NCBI GenBank assembly: GCA_048939765.1
Contig: JBHLPF010000001.1
Coordinates: 46,073 to 110,072, forward strand
Reading direction: 5' to 3'
Length of the DNA stretch: 64,000 bases
Source of the DNA: Promethearchaeota archaeon
Lineage (GTDB): Archaea; Asgardarchaeota; Thorarchaeia; Thorarchaeales; Thorarchaeaceae
In this document: positions 2,134-62,270 of the stretch, piece after piece
Layout of the letters: each line of letters begins with the position of its first letter
How positions within the stretch are numbered: the stretch's first letter is position 1
The notes under the pieces: model-generated
What the model saw: the letters and a program-made list of their open reading frames with translations, nothing else
What the model was told of the DNA's origin: nothing
Databases searched by the model: none
Position numbers and translations under genes: made by a program

Positions 2134-2712
2134 TTAAATTGGCTTTGTGAGAACACTTGCACGCATAGCGTTTCCAAAGAGATGCTGAAATGCCTCTAGG
2201 ATGTTGAAGCCATCCTTGGCTATGCTTTTGAACACAGGGACGGCTCGCGGAAGTCTTAGGTGCTGCCGTATTTCGTCTTCTTGAACTGCTCCTGGAAGAT
2301 CCTGCTTGTTGAGGCAGACAACTATTGGCAGGGGTCGCTCCTCCTCCGCCACCAATGCCACCAGCTCGTTCCAACTTGCCTGATTCTCTTGCAACAGGTG
2401 TTCCTGAGAATCGACCATGAAAACGACTCCATCTGCACCTACAAGGACCACTTCTCTAGTTGACCTATAGAAGTCTTGACCAGTTGCTGACCATACATGA
2501 GCGTTGATCTTCCAGCTGTCCCCTAATGCAAATGGAATTGTGCCAAAGTCGCAGAACATAGTCCTACCCACAGTGTTCTCAATGGATGTCAGTTTGTCTG
2601 CATAATCAAGGCTTGAGAAGAGCCATCGTATGGCAGTGGTTTTGCCACTCATTGCAGGGCCAAAGAACACTATTTTGAGACCGACCGTACGAGTACCATA
2701 GTCTATAATCAT
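2134..2712 (-). CDS. Arf-like small GTPase (Ras superfamily; ArfR-type as found in Asgard archaea)
   Basis: 192 aa. G1 GPAMSGKTT, G3 WSATGQD (DxxGQ) and G4 NKQD (the Arf-type NKQD). Last gene of an operon with a roadblock/LC7 protein. Confidence 0.8.
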   Translation of the reverse strand: MIIDYGTRTVGLKIVFFGPAMSGKTTAIRWLFSSLDYADKLTSIENTVGRTMFCDFGTIPFALGDSWKINAHVWSATGQDFYRSTREVVLVGADGVVFMVDSQEHLLQENQASWNELVALVAEEERPLPIVVCLNKQDLPGAVQEDEIRQHLRLPRAVPVFKSIAKDGFNILEAFQHLFGNAMRASVLTKPI

Positions 2713-2727
2713 CCCTTCACTCCCTGA

Positions 2728-3648
2728 TTACGTTCCCCACATACTGTCAACCCACGCACCAAGGCCAGATAACGCACCGGACTTCACGCAGTCAGAAAAG
2801 TCCTCGTGCCATTCTGCAACGATGAATCGAATAAGGTCAGACAAATCGCCGTCTTCCCATCCAATTGCCTCATACAGATTTCTCTCAGTCAGCGCAGTAG
2901 ATGCACCAAGTTCCCTGGCTAGACGGATTCTGGATAATAGAGTAACTGCTCTTCTGGCTGCATGTACATAGTTGCTTATTTCTTCATCAAACACATCATG
3001 CGTCAGTTTCTCAGATTCATCATCAAGCTTCAAGACTGCATTTATGATTCCACTTGATACATTGACGCCACGAAGTGATTTTCTCAGAAGGCGTCTGATT
3101 CTCTCGAGAGATTGACGTTTTCGAGTCAGAATCTTAGTAACTATCTTCTTTTCCACCTCCAAATTGCCGCTACATGGCTCTATGAGGGAGAAGTTCATCG
3201 ATGAAGGAGAGGCCACTCTCAAGATTCCACAATTGTTGGAATGCTGTAGCACTCGATGAATCACCGTTTGCATCATCTCTTCATTCACATGCATTCCTAA
3301 CACATTGGCTCCTATTGGGATTGCAAGAAGCCATCCAGAAAATCTGGTTATTCGTTCTAGAGCCAGTCGGAGGTTTGACGAGAGCCCGCAGATGATGGTT
3401 CTACTGACTTCATAGTTGTGCTTTTCCTCCTCCCAAACTGCAAGAAGCTCGGTTTCGGAGGTGAAATCACGCCAGAACACAAGCTTGTGATGGTGAGGGC
3501 ACAACATAGCAAGGCTTTCAGTGATGTCATCTACTAGTTCAACATCTTGACCAGTTACCAGGATAGGAAGACGGTTCATCACGGAATTCAACAGAAGCGG
3601 AAAATCATCCCCCAAAAGCTCAATCATTCGCATTATAGAATAAGTCAT
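2728..3648 (-). CDS. Hypothetical protein, middle gene of the GTPase/roadblock operon
   Basis: 306-aa ORF. Its stop overlaps the upstream gene (3645..3648), which is typical of translational coupling. No motif recognised. Confidence 0.5.
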   Translation of the reverse strand: MTYSIMRMIELLGDDFPLLLNSVMNRLPILVTGQDVELVDDITESLAMLCPHHHKLVFWRDFTSETELLAVWEEEKHNYEVSRTIICGLSSNLRLALERITRFSGWLLAIPIGANVLGMHVNEEMMQTVIHRVLQHSNNCGILRVASPSSMNFSLIEPCSGNLEVEKKIVTKILTRKRQSLERIRRLLRKSLRGVNVSSGIINAVLKLDDESEKLTHDVFDEEISNYVHAARRAVTLLSRIRLARELGASTALTERNLYEAIGWEDGDLSDLIRFIVAEWHEDFSDCVKSGALSGLGAWVDSMWGT

Positions 3649-4592
3649 GGTTCTCGCCTCGCTAAAACCATTCCATTTTCATTGCCGCCAGCTAGAAGCA
3701 GCTCTCTTAGATCGTCTGGAACTGAAAGGCGCATTGCTTCGGCAGTACTAAGAACACGTTTAATCTCCTCAATGTAGTGCTTGAGCAGAAGCCGCATGAG
3801 GCCAAGTTTCTGACCTCCACGATTTACCCAAAGGCTGAACACTCCGTTTGGCACAGCATAGATGAAGTGCCTTATAGATCCCGCTTCGCAGAGAACAGTC
3901 TGAAGAGAACTATTGCGGAGCGTTCGTACCACGCGTTCTGATGCATCATGTAGAGCAAAGGACATTGCAGCAAGTCTATCATTAGTAAATCCCTCCAGAG
4001 AAACACGAACACCACCACTGAGAGAGAGAAAGACCGATTCGATATCAGGAATGCCATCATGCACCTGCCGCAATAACGCTCTCAGTGCGAGAGCTTGAGA
4101 CCGATCAAGTGATATGATTGACCGTGATGTGGCATAGGAGGTATCTCGTCCTTCAGCCACAGCGAACCCGCCAAGAACACGATGGGTTTCTTCACTACTG
4201 TATGAGCGCAGCGGTGGGAGCCTTCCATCCACATGCTGACGCAGCAAGAATGCAACACGAGATAAACTGTCCTTCATCTCTATGAATAGCGCTGCAAGAT
4301 TAACCCTGGGTGCAGTTGTAACGGTCAAGAAGTAGTCAGGATCATTGGGAAGTGAGGCAAGAAATACTTTGGAGGTTTCGGATTCCATAAGAAGATACTT
4401 GAATTCGCCATGGACAAGACGTGCAACGCCATAGATTGCACATGTCGATGATGCAATCGCGAATACCTCTTCCTTGCTGAACCAGACCCCAGCACTGGCA
4501 ACCGGGAGTCCATCCTTCTGAATTAGGACTACATTTTCAACGCCTGCAATCATCTTTATGGTTTGCAGCGTTTCGTTTAGCTCGTCAGTCAA
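3645..4592 (-). CDS. Roadblock/LC7 (MglB-like) domain protein with three tandem roadblock-like repeats
   Basis: 315 aa. N-terminal LQTIKMIAGVENVVLIQKDGLPVAS matches the Roadblock/LC7 signature. Two further similar segments follow (HRVLGGFAVAEGRDTSY..., SVFLSLSGGVRVSLEG...). First gene of the operon that ends in the Arf-like GTPase. Confidence 0.65.
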   Translation of the reverse strand: MTDELNETLQTIKMIAGVENVVLIQKDGLPVASAGVWFSKEEVFAIASSTCAIYGVARLVHGEFKYLLMESETSKVFLASLPNDPDYFLTVTTAPRVNLAALFIEMKDSLSRVAFLLRQHVDGRLPPLRSYSSEETHRVLGGFAVAEGRDTSYATSRSIISLDRSQALALRALLRQVHDGIPDIESVFLSLSGGVRVSLEGFTNDRLAAMSFALHDASERVVRTLRNSSLQTVLCEAGSIRHFIYAVPNGVFSLWVNRGGQKLGLMRLLLKHYIEEIKRVLSTAEAMRLSVPDDLRELLLAGGNENGMVLARREP

Positions 4593-4705
4593 TCGCTCAG
4601 CTCCGGACCTAGAAGATGGTCCAATCTAGAATCTCGGAGGTTACTATATAACCACCACACAGACGGTGTTCTTCGTGGTGAGTTTGTGTGAAGCTTGGCC
4701 AATGA

Positions 4706-6001
4706 TCACATGTGAATTAATGCGGCATCTGGGACCTCTTGAAAGACTTCACGGGCGGCTTTTCCGACCTTTCTGCGATTGCGGTCAAATGTATACACAC
4801 GGATGACATCGAGGTATACCTTCATCATCTCTGCAATGTTTGAGTAGTCTGAGAGATTATGAGAGACCTTCTTGCTATCAATCATCTCGAAGATTCGTAT
4901 CTCCATGGGATTGAGCTGATGTGGATTATAGGGAACTGATGGAAGAGTAGGCACATCTACAATCACTTCATCGGCTGGTACATCTGCTAATGCTGCAATC
5001 TCATCCTCAATGCTCTCTCTGACTCTGCGCTTCGTAAGAATTTTGGATACAAAGCGATCTTCGGTGTGCAGGACTTTCTCGAAGACGGACTTGTACAGAA
5101 TACGCGAATCTAACATGTTTACCATTCTGACCGCTTCTTTGGCATCGTCAGACTCAGTGGGGTTAATCTTTCTGATTCTTGATATCAATGACATATCATC
5201 TAGCTTCAGAAACTCTTCAGGAGTTGAAAAGCTCGTCAATCCTAAGACACTGTCTGCAGCATTCATGAGCTTGACCAACATTACCTCAACACTGCGAACT
5301 GTCTTGTGATAATAGACATTGAGAAACATCTCATACCGTGCAACAAGGAATGCTTCCAGAGCGCCTCTGGCTGCAATATCGAACTCTGGTATGAGATCAT
5401 CAGAAACTTCTAGGCTGTTGATGAGTCGATGAATGTCAACAAGACCATAGTTTACCCCGCAATAGAATGAGTCTCTAATCAGATAGTCCATCTTATCAGC
5501 ATCAACTTGACCTGCAACGATGGAACTAACAACTGAATCAGTCTTGGTTTCACGTCTTCCGCGAACTAGGTTGGCTATTCGGTCTTTAGATATTCCACCA
5601 TCCTCAAGCAGGTCTCCAACCTCGCTCTCACGGATGATCCACTCAGTCACGTCTTCGTGGTTCCATCCCCTTCGTTCAATTAGTGACTCCTCAAATACAT
5701 GGCTGAATGGACCATGACCTATGTCATGTAAGAGGCCTGAGATACGTACTTCTTGAAGGGTCTTCTCACCAAGACTCATTGGGCCGAGTAGCCTCCTTCC
5801 TGTCAGACCTGCTAGATACATTGCACCAATGCAGTGCCCGAAGCGGGTATGTTCAGCGGCAGGGTATACGAAATGACCGCCAGAGAGCTGTTTTATCCGT
5901 CTTAGTCGTTGATAGGGCCTTGAGTTAATAACCTTGGACTCAAGTTCTGTGAGCCCGATGAAACCATGGATAGGATCGTTCAGCTCCATAATGAAATCCA
6001 T
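4706..6001 (-). CDS. HD-domain phosphohydrolase (dGTPase/SAMHD1-like dNTP triphosphohydrolase family)
   Basis: 431 aa. HD motif region HTRFGHCIGAMYLAG...LLHDIGHGPFSH...D. Length and layout resemble archaeal dGTP triphosphohydrolase-like proteins. Confidence 0.7.
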   Translation of the reverse strand: MDFIMELNDPIHGFIGLTELESKVINSRPYQRLRRIKQLSGGHFVYPAAEHTRFGHCIGAMYLAGLTGRRLLGPMSLGEKTLQEVRISGLLHDIGHGPFSHVFEESLIERRGWNHEDVTEWIIRESEVGDLLEDGGISKDRIANLVRGRRETKTDSVVSSIVAGQVDADKMDYLIRDSFYCGVNYGLVDIHRLINSLEVSDDLIPEFDIAARGALEAFLVARYEMFLNVYYHKTVRSVEVMLVKLMNAADSVLGLTSFSTPEEFLKLDDMSLISRIRKINPTESDDAKEAVRMVNMLDSRILYKSVFEKVLHTEDRFVSKILTKRRVRESIEDEIAALADVPADEVIVDVPTLPSVPYNPHQLNPMEIRIFEMIDSKKVSHNLSDYSNIAEMMKVYLDVIRVYTFDRNRRKVGKAAREVFQEVPDAALIHM

Positions 6002-6018
6002 AAGAATCCCTCAAGCGT

Positions 6019-6834
6019 CTACATCTGTGGGTTGAATGACCTCAGCTCTCGAATTAATTCGTCAGAAGCCAGGTCTGACACGCAAAGAGGTAGATGGATA
6101 CTGTCTGCAATTTTGACAGCAAGTGGATCAAGCTCCTTAACTCCTTGTAATATCACAGCAGCTGGCTTCACTGCAGCAGAAGTGCCAATCTGACTTGCCT
6201 TTATTGCAACCATGGGAGAACGTCCAGTAGAAACGTTCGTGAGAATTGCCGCTCTTTGAGTGGTTCCTCCATAGAGTCGAAGAAGCTGTTGTGGAGTTAA
6301 ACTGACAATGGCTTTTACACTGTCCAGTGCTGTGTAACCATAGATATCGCGATCTAGCAGGTTGCCATGTGTGAGGATTTTGCATTCAAGATGATCGACT
6401 AGTAGACGTGCTGGCACGGGCAATCCAAATTCCCTGCTGTCAAGTATGGCATCAGATGCTATTTCTGGAGCTAGCAGTTTCTCAAGTGCCACGGCAACTC
6501 TTCCACCATTGAGGGCATCCATCTCGATTAAGCCTTCGACAAATCGCCTTATGGTTTCAACACGAGGTGATTTTCTTCGTCCACTTTCATAATCGCTGAT
6601 TACAGAGGGCGATACGCCAAGATGTTTTGCCAAGTGTTTCTGTGAGATTTGGAAACGCTCGCGCCAGCGTTTCATCACAGCTCCAGGATCGTTCTCAGCG
6701 AGGCATATCTCTCCCGCCATGGCTTCAGCCAGCCTATGCAATGCCTCACTTCCTTCCATACCAAGACTCCAAAGGACCTTTTCTGATAAAGATTTGCGAA
6801 GTGATAGGTTGTCACTGAACCTATGCGACACCAC
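6019..6834 (-). CDS. XRE-family helix-turn-helix transcriptional regulator with an uncharacterised C-terminal domain
   Basis: 271 aa. HTH_XRE-like segment ISQKHLAKHLGVSPSVISDYESGRRKSP. Confidence 0.5.
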   Translation of the reverse strand: MVSHRFSDNLSLRKSLSEKVLWSLGMEGSEALHRLAEAMAGEICLAENDPGAVMKRWRERFQISQKHLAKHLGVSPSVISDYESGRRKSPRVETIRRFVEGLIEMDALNGGRVAVALEKLLAPEIASDAILDSREFGLPVPARLLVDHLECKILTHGNLLDRDIYGYTALDSVKAIVSLTPQQLLRLYGGTTQRAAILTNVSTGRSPMVAIKASQIGTSAAVKPAAVILQGVKELDPLAVKIADSIHLPLCVSDLASDELIRELRSFNPQM

Positions 6835-6872
6835 ACCGAAGGACTCAAAGAGAGCTCGTTGCTCAAAGCAAT

Positions 6873-7649
6873 TTGGTTGAAGTCATGTTCTTCACATTCC
6901 TAGTTGGTACTGCAGGATCAGGTAAATCGCTTCTTACATCATCTCTTGAGAAATGGCTGGTAGAGGCTGAAACAAGCGTCACTGTTGTGAATCTTGATCC
7001 TGGAGTAGATGACCCACCTTACACAAGTGATGTAGATATCCGTGAATATGTGAACTATGGTGAAGTGATGCAGCAGTTTGGGCTGGGTCCAAATGGTGCT
7101 CTTGTTGCTTGCCTAGACATGGCTATAGGTCACGTAGGTGATTTGAGAGAAGAGATATTCGAACTTGAACGTGATTATGTCTTGGTTGACTGCCCGGGAC
7201 AAATGGAGCTTTTTGCTTATCGAAACTCCGGACCTCTAATGGTTTCAAGCCTTATGGCTCAAGATCCAGCTGTTTCACTCTATCTGCTTGATTCAAATAT
7301 TGCTCGCACGCCAGTTGGATATCTCTCTTCCATGCTTCTTGGCATCTCGATAAGCATTCGTTTTGGCCTCCCTCAAATCGGGGTTCTAAGTAAATCTGAT
7401 ATCCTTATGGAAGAGCAAATAGAAGAAATACTATCATGGTCATCTGACACCTACCTGCTGGAAGAGGCACTCGAAGGTAGTTCCACTGGTCTTGTCAGAG
7501 AATACTCCAGTGCAATTCTTCGTATGCTTGATGACATCGGCGGAGGCAGTCCTGTTGTGCCTGTGTCTGCAAAGCTCATGGATGGAGTTGAAATCCTATA
7601 TGGAGAACTCCAACGTGCGTTCCTAGGCGGAGACAATCTGGTAGTCTGA
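6873..7649 (+). CDS. GPN-loop GTPase
   Basis: 258 aa. P-loop GTAGSGKS, then DPG, a GPNGAL (GPN) motif and DCPGQMELF (G3). The family is conserved in Archaea and Eukarya. Confidence 0.85.
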   Translation: MVEVMFFTFLVGTAGSGKSLLTSSLEKWLVEAETSVTVVNLDPGVDDPPYTSDVDIREYVNYGEVMQQFGLGPNGALVACLDMAIGHVGDLREEIFELERDYVLVDCPGQMELFAYRNSGPLMVSSLMAQDPAVSLYLLDSNIARTPVGYLSSMLLGISISIRFGLPQIGVLSKSDILMEEQIEEILSWSSDTYLLEEALEGSSTGLVREYSSAILRMLDDIGGGSPVVPVSAKLMDGVEILYGELQRAFLGGDNLVV

Positions 7650-7662
7650 GCGGGGGTTCAAA

Positions 7663-8694
7663 TTGCGGACCTTCTTTGTAATCATATCGGGCGAGGATTT
7701 CAACCTCGCCAAGGCTGAGATTGATTCGTTGATTGAATTAGCAGGAGCTGATGCCAAGGTTATGTGGCTTGGGCAGCTAGCTCAGATTGAGTCAACCTAC
7801 GACCTCACTGATTTTTTGCTGGAAAGGGCTGCCATGGTAAAAGAAGCCGGAGCCATAATTGGTCAGGGGCCATTGTCGGATGCATCCCTAGAGTGGCTTT
7901 CTGATGATGTTCTCGTGAAATGTGTGAAACCAACAGGAACATTCTCAATTAGAACTAGGTCTCTTGCAGAAGAAAGACATGTGGAACAAAGGGAGAGATT
8001 GAGTAAGTCACTTGGCGCACGTATCAGAAATCTGACCAATGCAAGAGTATCATTAGACAACCCAGAAGTCAGAATACTCCTTGTATTAGCTCCCGATAGA
8101 GCGCTGGTTTGTATTTCTAAAGAGTCGAAGCTGAGACGGGAGCTAAGACTTAGAGAACCGGGAAAGAAACCTTTCTTCCATCCATCAATGATGAATTCCC
8201 AGTTGGCGAGAGTCGTTTGCAATCTTGCTGGAATAAAGCCAAAAGCGACCGTACTCGATCCGTTCTGCGGTGGTGGAGGCATCCTATGCGAAGCGGCCCT
8301 CATAGGCGCAAGGGTACTGGGATGGGACCTTAACTGGCGTCTAATCTTGGGTGCGATTAGGAATCTTACAGAATTATTGGTCAAAGAATCGTCTGTGATT
8401 CAAGCTGATTCACGCTGGCCGCCCTTACAGACAAAGAAAATAGACTGCATAGTTACAGACCCCCCGTATGGTCGGACCAGTTCCACTAGAGGTGCAAAGG
8501 CGAGAAGACTGGCCCAAACCTTCTTGGAACAAACGCCTGAGATTCTCAAAGACGGCGGACGTCTATGCATCTGTGGAAGCCAAGAACTGAGAATCAAAGA
8601 AATGATGCAAGATTTGGGATTTGCTATCAAATATCATGTTCTTGTACCTGTGCATAGTGGTCTCACACGCGAAGTCACAGCAGCACAGTTCTAA
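7663..8694 (+). CDS. trm11: tRNA (guanine10-N2)-methyltransferase, Trm11/TrmG10 family (THUMP domain plus class I methyltransferase)
   Basis: 343 aa. N-terminal THUMP-like region, SAM motif DPFCGGGG and catalytic DPPYG. Confidence 0.75.
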   Translation: MRTFFVIISGEDFNLAKAEIDSLIELAGADAKVMWLGQLAQIESTYDLTDFLLERAAMVKEAGAIIGQGPLSDASLEWLSDDVLVKCVKPTGTFSIRTRSLAEERHVEQRERLSKSLGARIRNLTNARVSLDNPEVRILLVLAPDRALVCISKESKLRRELRLREPGKKPFFHPSMMNSQLARVVCNLAGIKPKATVLDPFCGGGGILCEAALIGARVLGWDLNWRLILGAIRNLTELLVKESSVIQADSRWPPLQTKKIDCIVTDPPYGRTSSTRGAKARRLAQTFLEQTPEILKDGGRLCICGSQELRIKEMMQDLGFAIKYHVLVPVHSGLTREVTAAQF

Positions 8695-9110
8695 CTGTTA
8701 ACAATCCTTCCATCCTCAGTGGGGGGTACAAACCATGCAAGAAACTCATCAAAGGCAGCCTCATCATCAAACATAATCTCTAGTTCTACGCATCCTAAGG
8801 GAGGTTCTTCTTCAGTTTCATCAACAAGCCTCAGCTTTCCGTAAAATGCAGCCTGTTTATCAAAGAAGACAGATGTCTTGGACCCATCCCAGTTCGACAA
8901 GACTTTCTTCCGTACTGCATCAATAATCCGGAGAGCGTGGATGTACTGTTGCATAATATCAAGCGAACTTTTCTCATTTGACATCAACGTCATGTAACCA
9001 TACTCGTTTTCTTTGCATGGGCTGTCCGAAACAAAGAGATTGGTAAGGGCAGAACAGACGCGGGCTTTATCCTCTGTAGGATTAACAGGGCATCTTACAA
9101 TAGCATCCAT
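8691..9110 (-). CDS. Small conserved archaeal protein (UPF0201-like, predicted RNA-binding)
   Basis: 139 aa. Sits immediately downstream of a UPF0200-type P-loop kinase, which is the usual archaeal pairing. No catalytic motif. The family call is tentative. Confidence 0.35.
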   Translation of the reverse strand: MDAIVRCPVNPTEDKARVCSALTNLFVSDSPCKENEYGYMTLMSNEKSSLDIMQQYIHALRIIDAVRKKVLSNWDGSKTSVFFDKQAAFYGKLRLVDETEEEPPLGCVELEIMFDDEAAFDEFLAWFVPPTEDGRIVNS

Positions 9111-28461: not shown

Positions 28462-28569
28462 GCTCCGGTAGATGATTCATGAAATCCATGATACAACCGT
28501 ATGTAGTCCGGCCCAGCATGAGGGACTCTCGATCCCTCGACCCGGGTTCGAATCCCGGCCGGAGCACCA
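28462..28569 (+). tRNA. tRNA-Glu (anticodon CUC) with a roughly 30-nt insertion near the D-arm 5' side (non-canonical intron position); CCA is encoded
   Basis: The 3' two-thirds is canonical: ...AGGGA-CTCTCGA-TCCCT-CGAC-CCGGG-TTCGAAT-CCCGG-CCGGAGC-A-CCA. The 5' acceptor GCTCCGG is at 28462. It is separated from the D-arm sequence (ATGTAGTCCGGCCCAGCAT) by GATGATTCATGAAATCCATGATACAACCGT. The exact splice boundaries are ambiguous. Confidence 0.6.
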
Positions 28570-62160: not shown

Positions 62161-62270
62161 GGGCCGGTAGTCTAGCCCGGCTATGATGTCTCGCTTACAC
62201 CGAGAAACTGGTTGAGCTTTATGCTCTCCAGATTCGAAGGTCGCTGGTTCAAATCCGGCCCGGCCCACCA
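62161..62270 (+). tRNA. tRNA-Val (anticodon UAC) with a roughly 32-nt insertion between the anticodon stem and T-arm (non-canonical intron position); CCA is encoded
   Basis: GGGCCGG-TA-GTCTAGCCCGGCTATGAT-G-TCTCG-CTTACAC-CGAGA-[AACTGGTTGAGCTTTATGCTCTCCAGATTCGA]-AGGTC-GCTGG-TTCAAAT-CCGGC-CCGGCCC-A-CCA. Acceptor 7/7 and anticodon stem 5/5 perfect. The extra 32 nt cannot be a class II variable arm for Val. Confidence 0.6.

Follow-up and report, generated by a model that had tools for sequence, protein, structure and literature searches.

Organization of the locus

An operon of three genes on the minus strand, lying in a 64,000-nucleotide stretch of a Thorarchaeota genome (Promethearchaeota archaeon, GenBank assembly GCA_048939765.1, contig JBHLPF010000001.1, positions 46,073 to 110,072), is the subject of this report. 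This whole stretch is called the window, and positions are counted from its first letter. The products of the operon are a roadblock protein with two domains, a DENN-like protein and a small GTPase of MglA type. Gene A (3645-4592), which has a TTG start, encodes a tandem roadblock (MglB-like) protein of 315 residues; gene B (2728-3648) encodes a DENN/dDENN-like protein of 306 residues that has no longin domain; and gene C (2134-2712) encodes an MglA-type small GTPase of 192 residues. All gene and domain coordinates given below for the operon refer to the minus strand.

The three reading frames had been placed at the same coordinates in a first-pass annotation, made from the sequence alone. Its description of the junctions was nearly exact: the stop codon of A and the start codon of B share an ATGA overlap, by which B may be translationally coupled to A, and the spacer between B and C, given as 16 nucleotides, is in fact 15 nucleotides long (2713-2727) and includes GGGAGTGAAGGG. 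For each protein, 228-312 homologues were found in a large protein collection, and those listed are at least 72% identical and nearly all bear Thorarchaeota or other Asgard labels. Such numbers and identities point to genuine genes under strong constraint. Searches of NCBIfam found nothing specific to A, B or C.

The GTPase

The family of protein C was assigned by comparison with PDB sequences. In a search with the single sequence (phmmer), MglA of Myxococcus xanthus and Thermus thermophilus was matched over the full length with about 99-104 bits (E-values of 3e-27 to 9e-29), while the best Arf protein reached 41 bits (E-value 1.4e-9). When a profile of seven Asgard orthologues was used, the scores were 146 bits for MglA (E-value 9e-42), 56 for Arf1, 46 for Rab7 and 45 for a crystallised Thorarchaeota Rab. 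MglA exceeds Arf by about 60-90 bits in these searches.

The GTPase motifs reported in the first-pass annotation are in place, namely the P-loop G1 GPAMSGKTT (residues 18-26; 2635-2661), which is invariant across Asgard orthologues, WSATGQD (residues 74-80) and the G4 motif NKQD (residues 135-138; 2299-2310). In G3 (S75-A-T-G-Q79; 2476-2490) the catalytic glutamine is present and the universal aspartate is replaced by S75, this first residue being S or T among the Asgard orthologues. R50-T51 of switch I (2560-2565), which is invariant in the orthologues and aligned to R53-T54 of M. xanthus MglA, provides an intrinsic arginine finger adjoining the G2 threonine, a feature shared with MglA of Group 1. 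The spacing between G1 and G2 (K24 to T51) is 27 residues, compared with 29 for M. xanthus MglA in the alignment and about 18-19 in Ras and Arf proteins. The N-terminus of C, MIIDYGTRTVGLKIVFFGP, aligns residue for residue with FINYSSREINCKIVYYGP of MglA, and its strand IIDY...KIVFFGP parallels FINY...KIVYYGP. Neither Gly2 nor an Arf-type N-terminal amphipathic helix was found in the sequence of C or in its alignment with the N-terminus of MglA.

An intrinsic arginine finger, an insertion between G1 and G2 and a G3 motif without aspartate are the criteria for the MglA family given by Wuichet and Søgaard-Andersen (PMC4316618). The PDB bit scores, together with R50-T51, the G3 motif without aspartate, the long G1-G2 segment and the N-terminal strand, clearly classify C at the sequence level as a member of the MglA family of Group 1 type, not as an Arf protein. 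The middle residues of its G3 differ from the Group 1 consensus TVPGQ (PMC4316618). MglA-like GTPases of Asgard archaea have been recognised previously.

In the first-pass annotation, C was an Arf-type GTPase that formed a eukaryote-like Arf regulatory module with a triple-roadblock protein and a partner of novel fold. Searches with profile hidden Markov models, which were proposed there as a check, do give Arf (PF00025) as the top Pfam family for C (E-value 2.7e-13; 50.2 bits against a gathering cut-off of 22.3) and Robl_LC7 at residues 6-91 of A; the W...GQD and NKQD motifs are also Arf-like, and B has no Pfam match at threshold. However, Roc and Ras also pass for C and no MglA-specific family is among the matches, so that the Arf match is non-discriminating, and the PDB profile search favours MglA. 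Since C also lacks the G3 aspartate and Gly2 and has an N-terminus aligned to that of MglA, while A has two roadblock domains only and B is DENN-like and has been published as such, the Arf module is largely refuted and we consider it very improbable. The general idea stands, namely that an Asgard archaeon here encodes a small GTPase together with a roadblock partner as a regulatory module.

The roadblock protein

The first roadblock domain of A (residues 1 to about 115; 4248-4592) carries the canonical hairpin motif D27-G28-L-P. It was detected both by Pfam, with the above match to Robl_LC7 (E-value 9.7e-8, 32.1 bits against a cut-off of 23), and in the PDB, where the entry 7f8m, a "Robl_LC7 domain-containing protein", was matched with an E-value of 1.6e-5. 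The second domain (residues about 165-290; 3723-4100) was detected with a profile of residues 160-292 (A7), which was built from divergent Baldrarchaeia, Asgardarchaeia and metagenome orthologues. This profile matched the solved roadblock proteins 9jue_D (E-value 2.3e-7), CvnB5 (3leq; 5.2e-6), 7f8m (4.5e-4) and 7yh1 (1.5e-3), with alignments of about 94-115 residues in each case. The two halves of A align collinearly with each other in hhalign, though weakly (P 0.008), and BLASTP of the N-terminal half against the C-terminal half gave no significant match.

The secondary structure of an AlphaFold2 model of A, which was the only part of the model used, comprises two α-β-β-α-β-β-β-α units (residues 1-121 and 164-288), which a short helix separates. 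The linker (residues 116-164; 4101-4247) contains the conserved motif RLPPLRSYS and the invariant F143, and 25 residues follow the second domain. The profile matches of the second domain and the length of the linker, only about 50 residues, identify A as one polypeptide that bears two tandem roadblock domains, not the three consecutive segments claimed earlier. A third roadblock domain was ruled out, the linker being too short for it and consisting of one helix and coil. Among the homologues of A are 100%-identical proteins of metagenome-assembled genomes (MAGs) annotated as "roadblock/LC7 domain-containing protein", and in loci of Hel-, Baldr- and Asgardarchaeia an orthologue of A precedes B.

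The DENN-like protein

Protein B itself gave no Pfam, NCBIfam or PDB sequence match in single-sequence searches, and its assignment comes from structure. An AlphaFold2 model, built with a diverse family alignment, has a predicted local distance difference test score (pLDDT) of 90.7 and a predicted TM-score of 0.86. An N-terminal α/β domain (residues 1-158; 3175-3648), which resembles a DENN core and has repeated β-α units at residues 29-155, is followed by an all-helical, dDENN-like domain (residues 159-306; 2731-3174) with helices at residues 164-192, 199-205, 209-246, 255-262, 269-280 and 292-304. The N-terminal domain contains the invariant residues R26 and P28 and the motif LLxxLLDRxPIxxxG...L.PHR. 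No longin (uDENN) domain was found in the B polypeptide, which in the model starts directly at the DENN-like core.

A Foldseek search of the PDB with this model gave FLCN-FNIP2 (two entries), DENND1A, DENND1B (two chains) and C9orf72-SMCR8 at ranks 1-6, with probabilities of 0.93-0.99 and E-values of 1.8e-3 to 1.6e-2. DENND10 and more C9orf72-SMCR8 entries were found at lower ranks, and all DENN matches, which belong to five different DENN families, have probabilities of 0.89-0.99 and E-values up to about 5e-2. Since the alignments to chains of DENN modules span 272-323 columns, both domains of B are covered in order. On the basis of the model, B is a DENN-like protein composed of a DENN core and a dDENN domain without a longin domain. 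The earlier statement that the middle protein has no recognisable domain is thus right at Pfam thresholds and wrong at the level of fold; likewise, B is not the novel partner proposed, as its fold is not new, while the accompanying guess of an exchange factor fits the roles of eukaryotic DENN proteins.

When 1.84 billion cluster representatives (50% clustering) were searched exhaustively with a profile, only 74 relatives of B were collected, mostly of about 290-310 residues and with identities as low as about 20%. This family shows no variation at R26 and P28, and its alignments contain no conserved stretch of 7-10 columns. Four members gave sub-threshold Pfam matches to Folliculin_C (best E-value 4.8e-4) or DENN, all at residues about 5-62. 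No natural fusion of a roadblock domain to B was found among the longer members, whose added length is due to insertions.

The second tier of Foldseek matches consists of P-loop/AAA+ ATPases (DotB, clamp loader, p97, RuvB and CpaF; E-values of 0.02-0.2), and B might be read from them as a degenerate P-loop/AAA+-like NTPase unrelated to DENN, the DENN matches then reflecting a shared generic α/β topology. In its published description (PMC3521125), the DENN core indeed resembles a minimal P-loop α/β domain in topology and precedes an all-α dDENN domain. The second-tier matches fit this topology of the DENN core itself, and the α/β and all-helical domains in the model of B agree with it as well. 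We consider the NTPase reading improbable: no Walker A motif was found in the sequence of B, the probabilities of the NTPase matches (0.1-0.85) are below those of the DENN matches, the latter represent five families and extend in order over the two domains, and the sequence-level matches are to Folliculin_C and DENN and to no NTPase families.

Conservation of the gene order

Related loci were collected with one genome per species and with GTPase motifs (GPAM or GRT[LM]F[CF]D[FW]G), which gave at least 585 relatives, and the best 80 were examined. These comprise 78 loci of Thorarchaeota-type or other Asgard MAGs and two of Helarchaeota. The collinear order A-B-C, with A and B upstream of the GTPase gene, is present in 75 of the 80 loci, and C is thus genetically coupled to the roadblock gene within the same operon. 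The 75 include both Helarchaeota loci, in which the identities are 34, 29 and 48% for A, B and C, respectively. The five exceptions are one locus cut by a contig end, one with a fragmented B, and three second copies of the GTPase gene without A and B. The same order was also found in Baldrarchaeia and Asgardarchaeia contigs and in short metagenome contigs where B is only 23-32% identical.

The second copies of the MglA-type GTPase (loci L078, L080 and L081; 59-67% identity) occur in Thorarchaeota genomes that have the full operon elsewhere. The copy in L080 follows two large reading frames of 639 and 646 residues, the latter with a P-loop-like motif GGGKS. In a Baldrarchaeia locus (L004:6457-7083), a fourth reading frame of 208 residues without a Pfam match lies on the same strand, 5 nucleotides after the GTPase gene, and a gene for ribosomal protein S26e is directly downstream of the operon in L004 and L006. 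Another locus (L005:4052-5936; Promethearchaeota MAG GCA_054681365.1) has tandem B-like paralogues of 304 and 311 residues without an adjoining roadblock or GTPase gene.

Upstream region and neighbouring genes

The intergenic stretch 5' of A (4593-4705, minus strand) is strongly conserved across Thorarchaeota. It contains, in this order, CTGTGTGG-N-G-TTATATAG, GATTCTA..TTGRACC, GGAGCTGAG and the conserved TTG start, and it looks like a promoter with B recognition element (BRE) and TATA box followed by a short leader. The TATA-box-like TTATATA (TTATATAG) is at 4645-4651 on the minus strand, 59 nucleotides upstream of the TTG start of A. Of 68 related loci, 54 have TTA[AT]ATAG at 52-61 nucleotides before the start of A, 38 of these exactly at -59, and 56 have retained the TTG start. 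The TTATATA element is a probable promoter of the three-gene unit, and its conservation upstream of A supports a separate transcription unit for the three genes.

The genes around the operon (336-2012 and 4706-9110) are of housekeeping types. They encode CTP synthase, an HD-domain phosphohydrolase with HD_assoc_2, an XRE-type helix-turn-helix (HTH) protein, a GPN-loop GTPase (PF03029), a THUMP-methyltransferase (UPF0020) and a PF01877 RNA-binding protein. The order HTH-HD-A-B-C-CTP synthase is kept in about 65 of the 80 loci, all of Thorarchaeota, and the neighbours differ in other Asgard classes. Elsewhere in the window, Rfam detected a 107-nucleotide tRNA at 62161-62267, which was missed by ARAGORN and is probably an intron-containing archaeal tRNA, and a weak, partial tRNA-like match at 28501-28558 (31.6 bits, model positions 10-63).

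Comparison with known systems

Liu et al. have described an operon "conserved in most Asgard archaea" that encodes a Roadblock-superfamily protein, a small GTPase and a DENN protein (bioRxiv 2020.10.19.343400; Nature 2021), and they compared it to the folliculin complex. The present operon shares its gene content, its Asgard-wide conservation and the analogy to FLCN/Ragulator, and is an orthologue of it. Since gene content, conservation and lineage match, the roadblock-GTPase-DENN module is already known, from computation only. The roadblock protein was called "LAMTOR1-like" there, whereas it is a tandem, two-domain MglB-like protein here. In the literature searched, we found no experimental or structural follow-up of the module and no paper in which a DENN protein of a prokaryote is linked to a GTPase of MglA type.

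The polarity switch MglA-MglB of M. xanthus and T. thermophilus resembles the operon in the arginine finger next to the G2 threonine, the catalytic glutamine, the G3 motif without aspartate, the long G1-G2 segment and a GTPase gene that adjoins a roadblock gene. It differs in that MglB is a homodimer of single-domain subunits, while A has both roadblock domains in one chain; C has SATGQ instead of TVPGQ in G3 and an alanine in the P-loop where MglA has Gly21; and the third partner is a DENN-like protein instead of RomR, RomX or RomY. Moreover, the host is an archaeon, in which no polarity system for gliding or type IV pili is known.

The order of a roadblock gene, a gene for a middle protein and an MglA-family GTPase gene is also that of the actinobacterial cvnB-cvnC-cvnD, so that A, B and C could be regarded as CvnB, CvnC and CvnD of a conservon-like signalling cassette, and CvnB5 was the second-best PDB match of the C-terminal domain of A. 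However, no CvnA-type histidine kinase adjoins the operon, the neighbours being the HD-domain, HTH and CTP synthase genes, and B, with 306 residues and a DENN-like fold, has no match to DUF742 in Pfam and is unrelated to it. Furthermore, the conservon GTPases (Group 2) lack the arginine of switch I and have GTPGQ and NxFD (PMC4316618), whereas C has R50 and NKQD and its motifs are of Group 1 type. The conservon reading is disfavoured, and we give it hardly any credence.

Eukaryotic DENN modules, namely the Rab35 exchange factors DENND1A and DENND1B, FLCN-FNIP2, C9orf72-SMCR8 and DENND10, are the best structural matches of B. They share with it the α/β core followed by an all-helical dDENN-like domain and the link to a small GTPase and to a longin-related domain, which is the roadblock domain here. 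The differences are that B has no longin domain and the roadblock domains are on the separate, translationally coupled protein A, that the client is of MglA type and not a Rab, Rag or Arf, and that sequence similarity is under Pfam thresholds.

Proteins A and B might accordingly form a GTPase-activating protein (GAP) complex of folliculin type, like FLCN-FNIP or C9orf72-SMCR8, in which the roadblock domains contact the GTPase, B dimerises or serves as a scaffold, and no guanine nucleotide exchange factor (GEF) is encoded in the operon. The best Foldseek match of B is the FLCN-FNIP2 complex, with C9orf72-SMCR8 also high, the sub-threshold Pfam matches of its family are mainly to Folliculin_C, and the published comparison of the Asgard operon was likewise to FLCN (bioRxiv 2020.10.19.343400). 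The tandem B-like paralogues in L005, moreover, recall the DENN-DENN heterodimers of FLCN-FNIP and C9orf72-SMCR8. But the true GEFs DENND1A and DENND1B reach equally good scores with B, and C has its own arginine finger, so that no longin arginine of FLCN type is needed. We regard a complex of this type as rather unlikely, though worth bearing in mind.

Proposed mechanism

The explanation that we consider probable is that the locus is the Thorarchaeota copy of an Asgard-wide three-gene operon that makes up a self-contained small-GTPase switch. The identities and domain make-up of the proteins, the close coupling of their genes and the conserved synteny are results of the analysis, and from them we infer how the proteins interact and which of them serve as GAP or GEF. 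C, which itself supplies the catalytic residues arginine R50 and glutamine Q79, would cycle between GTP and GDP states. A would probably fold into a two-roadblock platform equivalent to that of the MglB homodimer; because the known MglB:MglA complex is 2:1 (PMC4316618), a single chain of A could offer such a platform to one MglA-type GTPase. Most likely, A would then act as an MglB-like GAP platform, which binds the switch face of C-GTP, positions R50 and Q79 and stimulates hydrolysis. B would most likely join A, with roadblock and DENN domains supplied in trans, as in the fused longin-DENN modules of eukaryotes, and may be either a nucleotide-exchange factor, as DENND1 is for Rab35, or a scaffold or co-regulator in a folliculin-like GAP complex.

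Several points weigh against this explanation. DENN domains are not the catalytic element in FLCN-FNIP2 and C9orf72-SMCR8, and a GEF role is therefore not the sole possibility for B. The best Foldseek E-value of B is 1.8e-3, with none at or below 1e-3, and the TM-scores are 0.30-0.36 with large root-mean-square deviations. The relatives of B are below the Pfam gathering scores (20.2 bits against a cut-off of 27 for Folliculin_C, and 13.1 against 23.4 for DENN), and the profile of the B family found no DENN protein among PDB sequences, giving only spurious ferritin matches. Since the Pfam matches are sub-threshold and the PDB profile search gave no DENN protein, the DENN assignment is one at the level of fold, where the model makes it moderately strong. 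The AlphaFold2 model of A, which was built from 15 close homologues, has a pLDDT of only 37 because of this shallow alignment. Finally, the operon was equated with that of Liu et al. by gene content, conservation and lineage, and the GTPase is labelled "Rab-like" there, in respect of which the MglA-type label is a modest refinement.

Implications

In eukaryotes, DENN proteins such as DENND1, folliculin and C9orf72 have a central part in regulating Rab, Rag and Arf GTPases, several of them are encoded by disease genes, and for a long time they were regarded as eukaryote-specific. With a DENN-like protein, a roadblock protein and the client GTPase encoded next to each other, the archaeal operon is a compact system. 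It could be expressed in E. coli and used to ask what a DENN domain did before eukaryotes. Its interest lies in the origin of eukaryotic GTPase regulators. Because the operon itself was described in 2020/2021, the present analysis adds a confirmation and two refinements, i.e., a client of MglA type with its own arginine finger and a two-domain, single-chain roadblock partner.

That DENN regulators served MglA-like switches before the radiation of Rab proteins was proposed on theory by Zhang, Iyer, He and Aravind in 2012 (PMC3521125). Our tentative view, which we hold as possible and not as established, is that the DENN-like and tandem-roadblock proteins of Asgard archaea jointly regulate an MglA-type GTPase, and that the operon may be an unfused forerunner of the longin-DENN-dDENN architecture, in which case DENN regulators would have worked on MglA-like switches before Rab proteins diversified.

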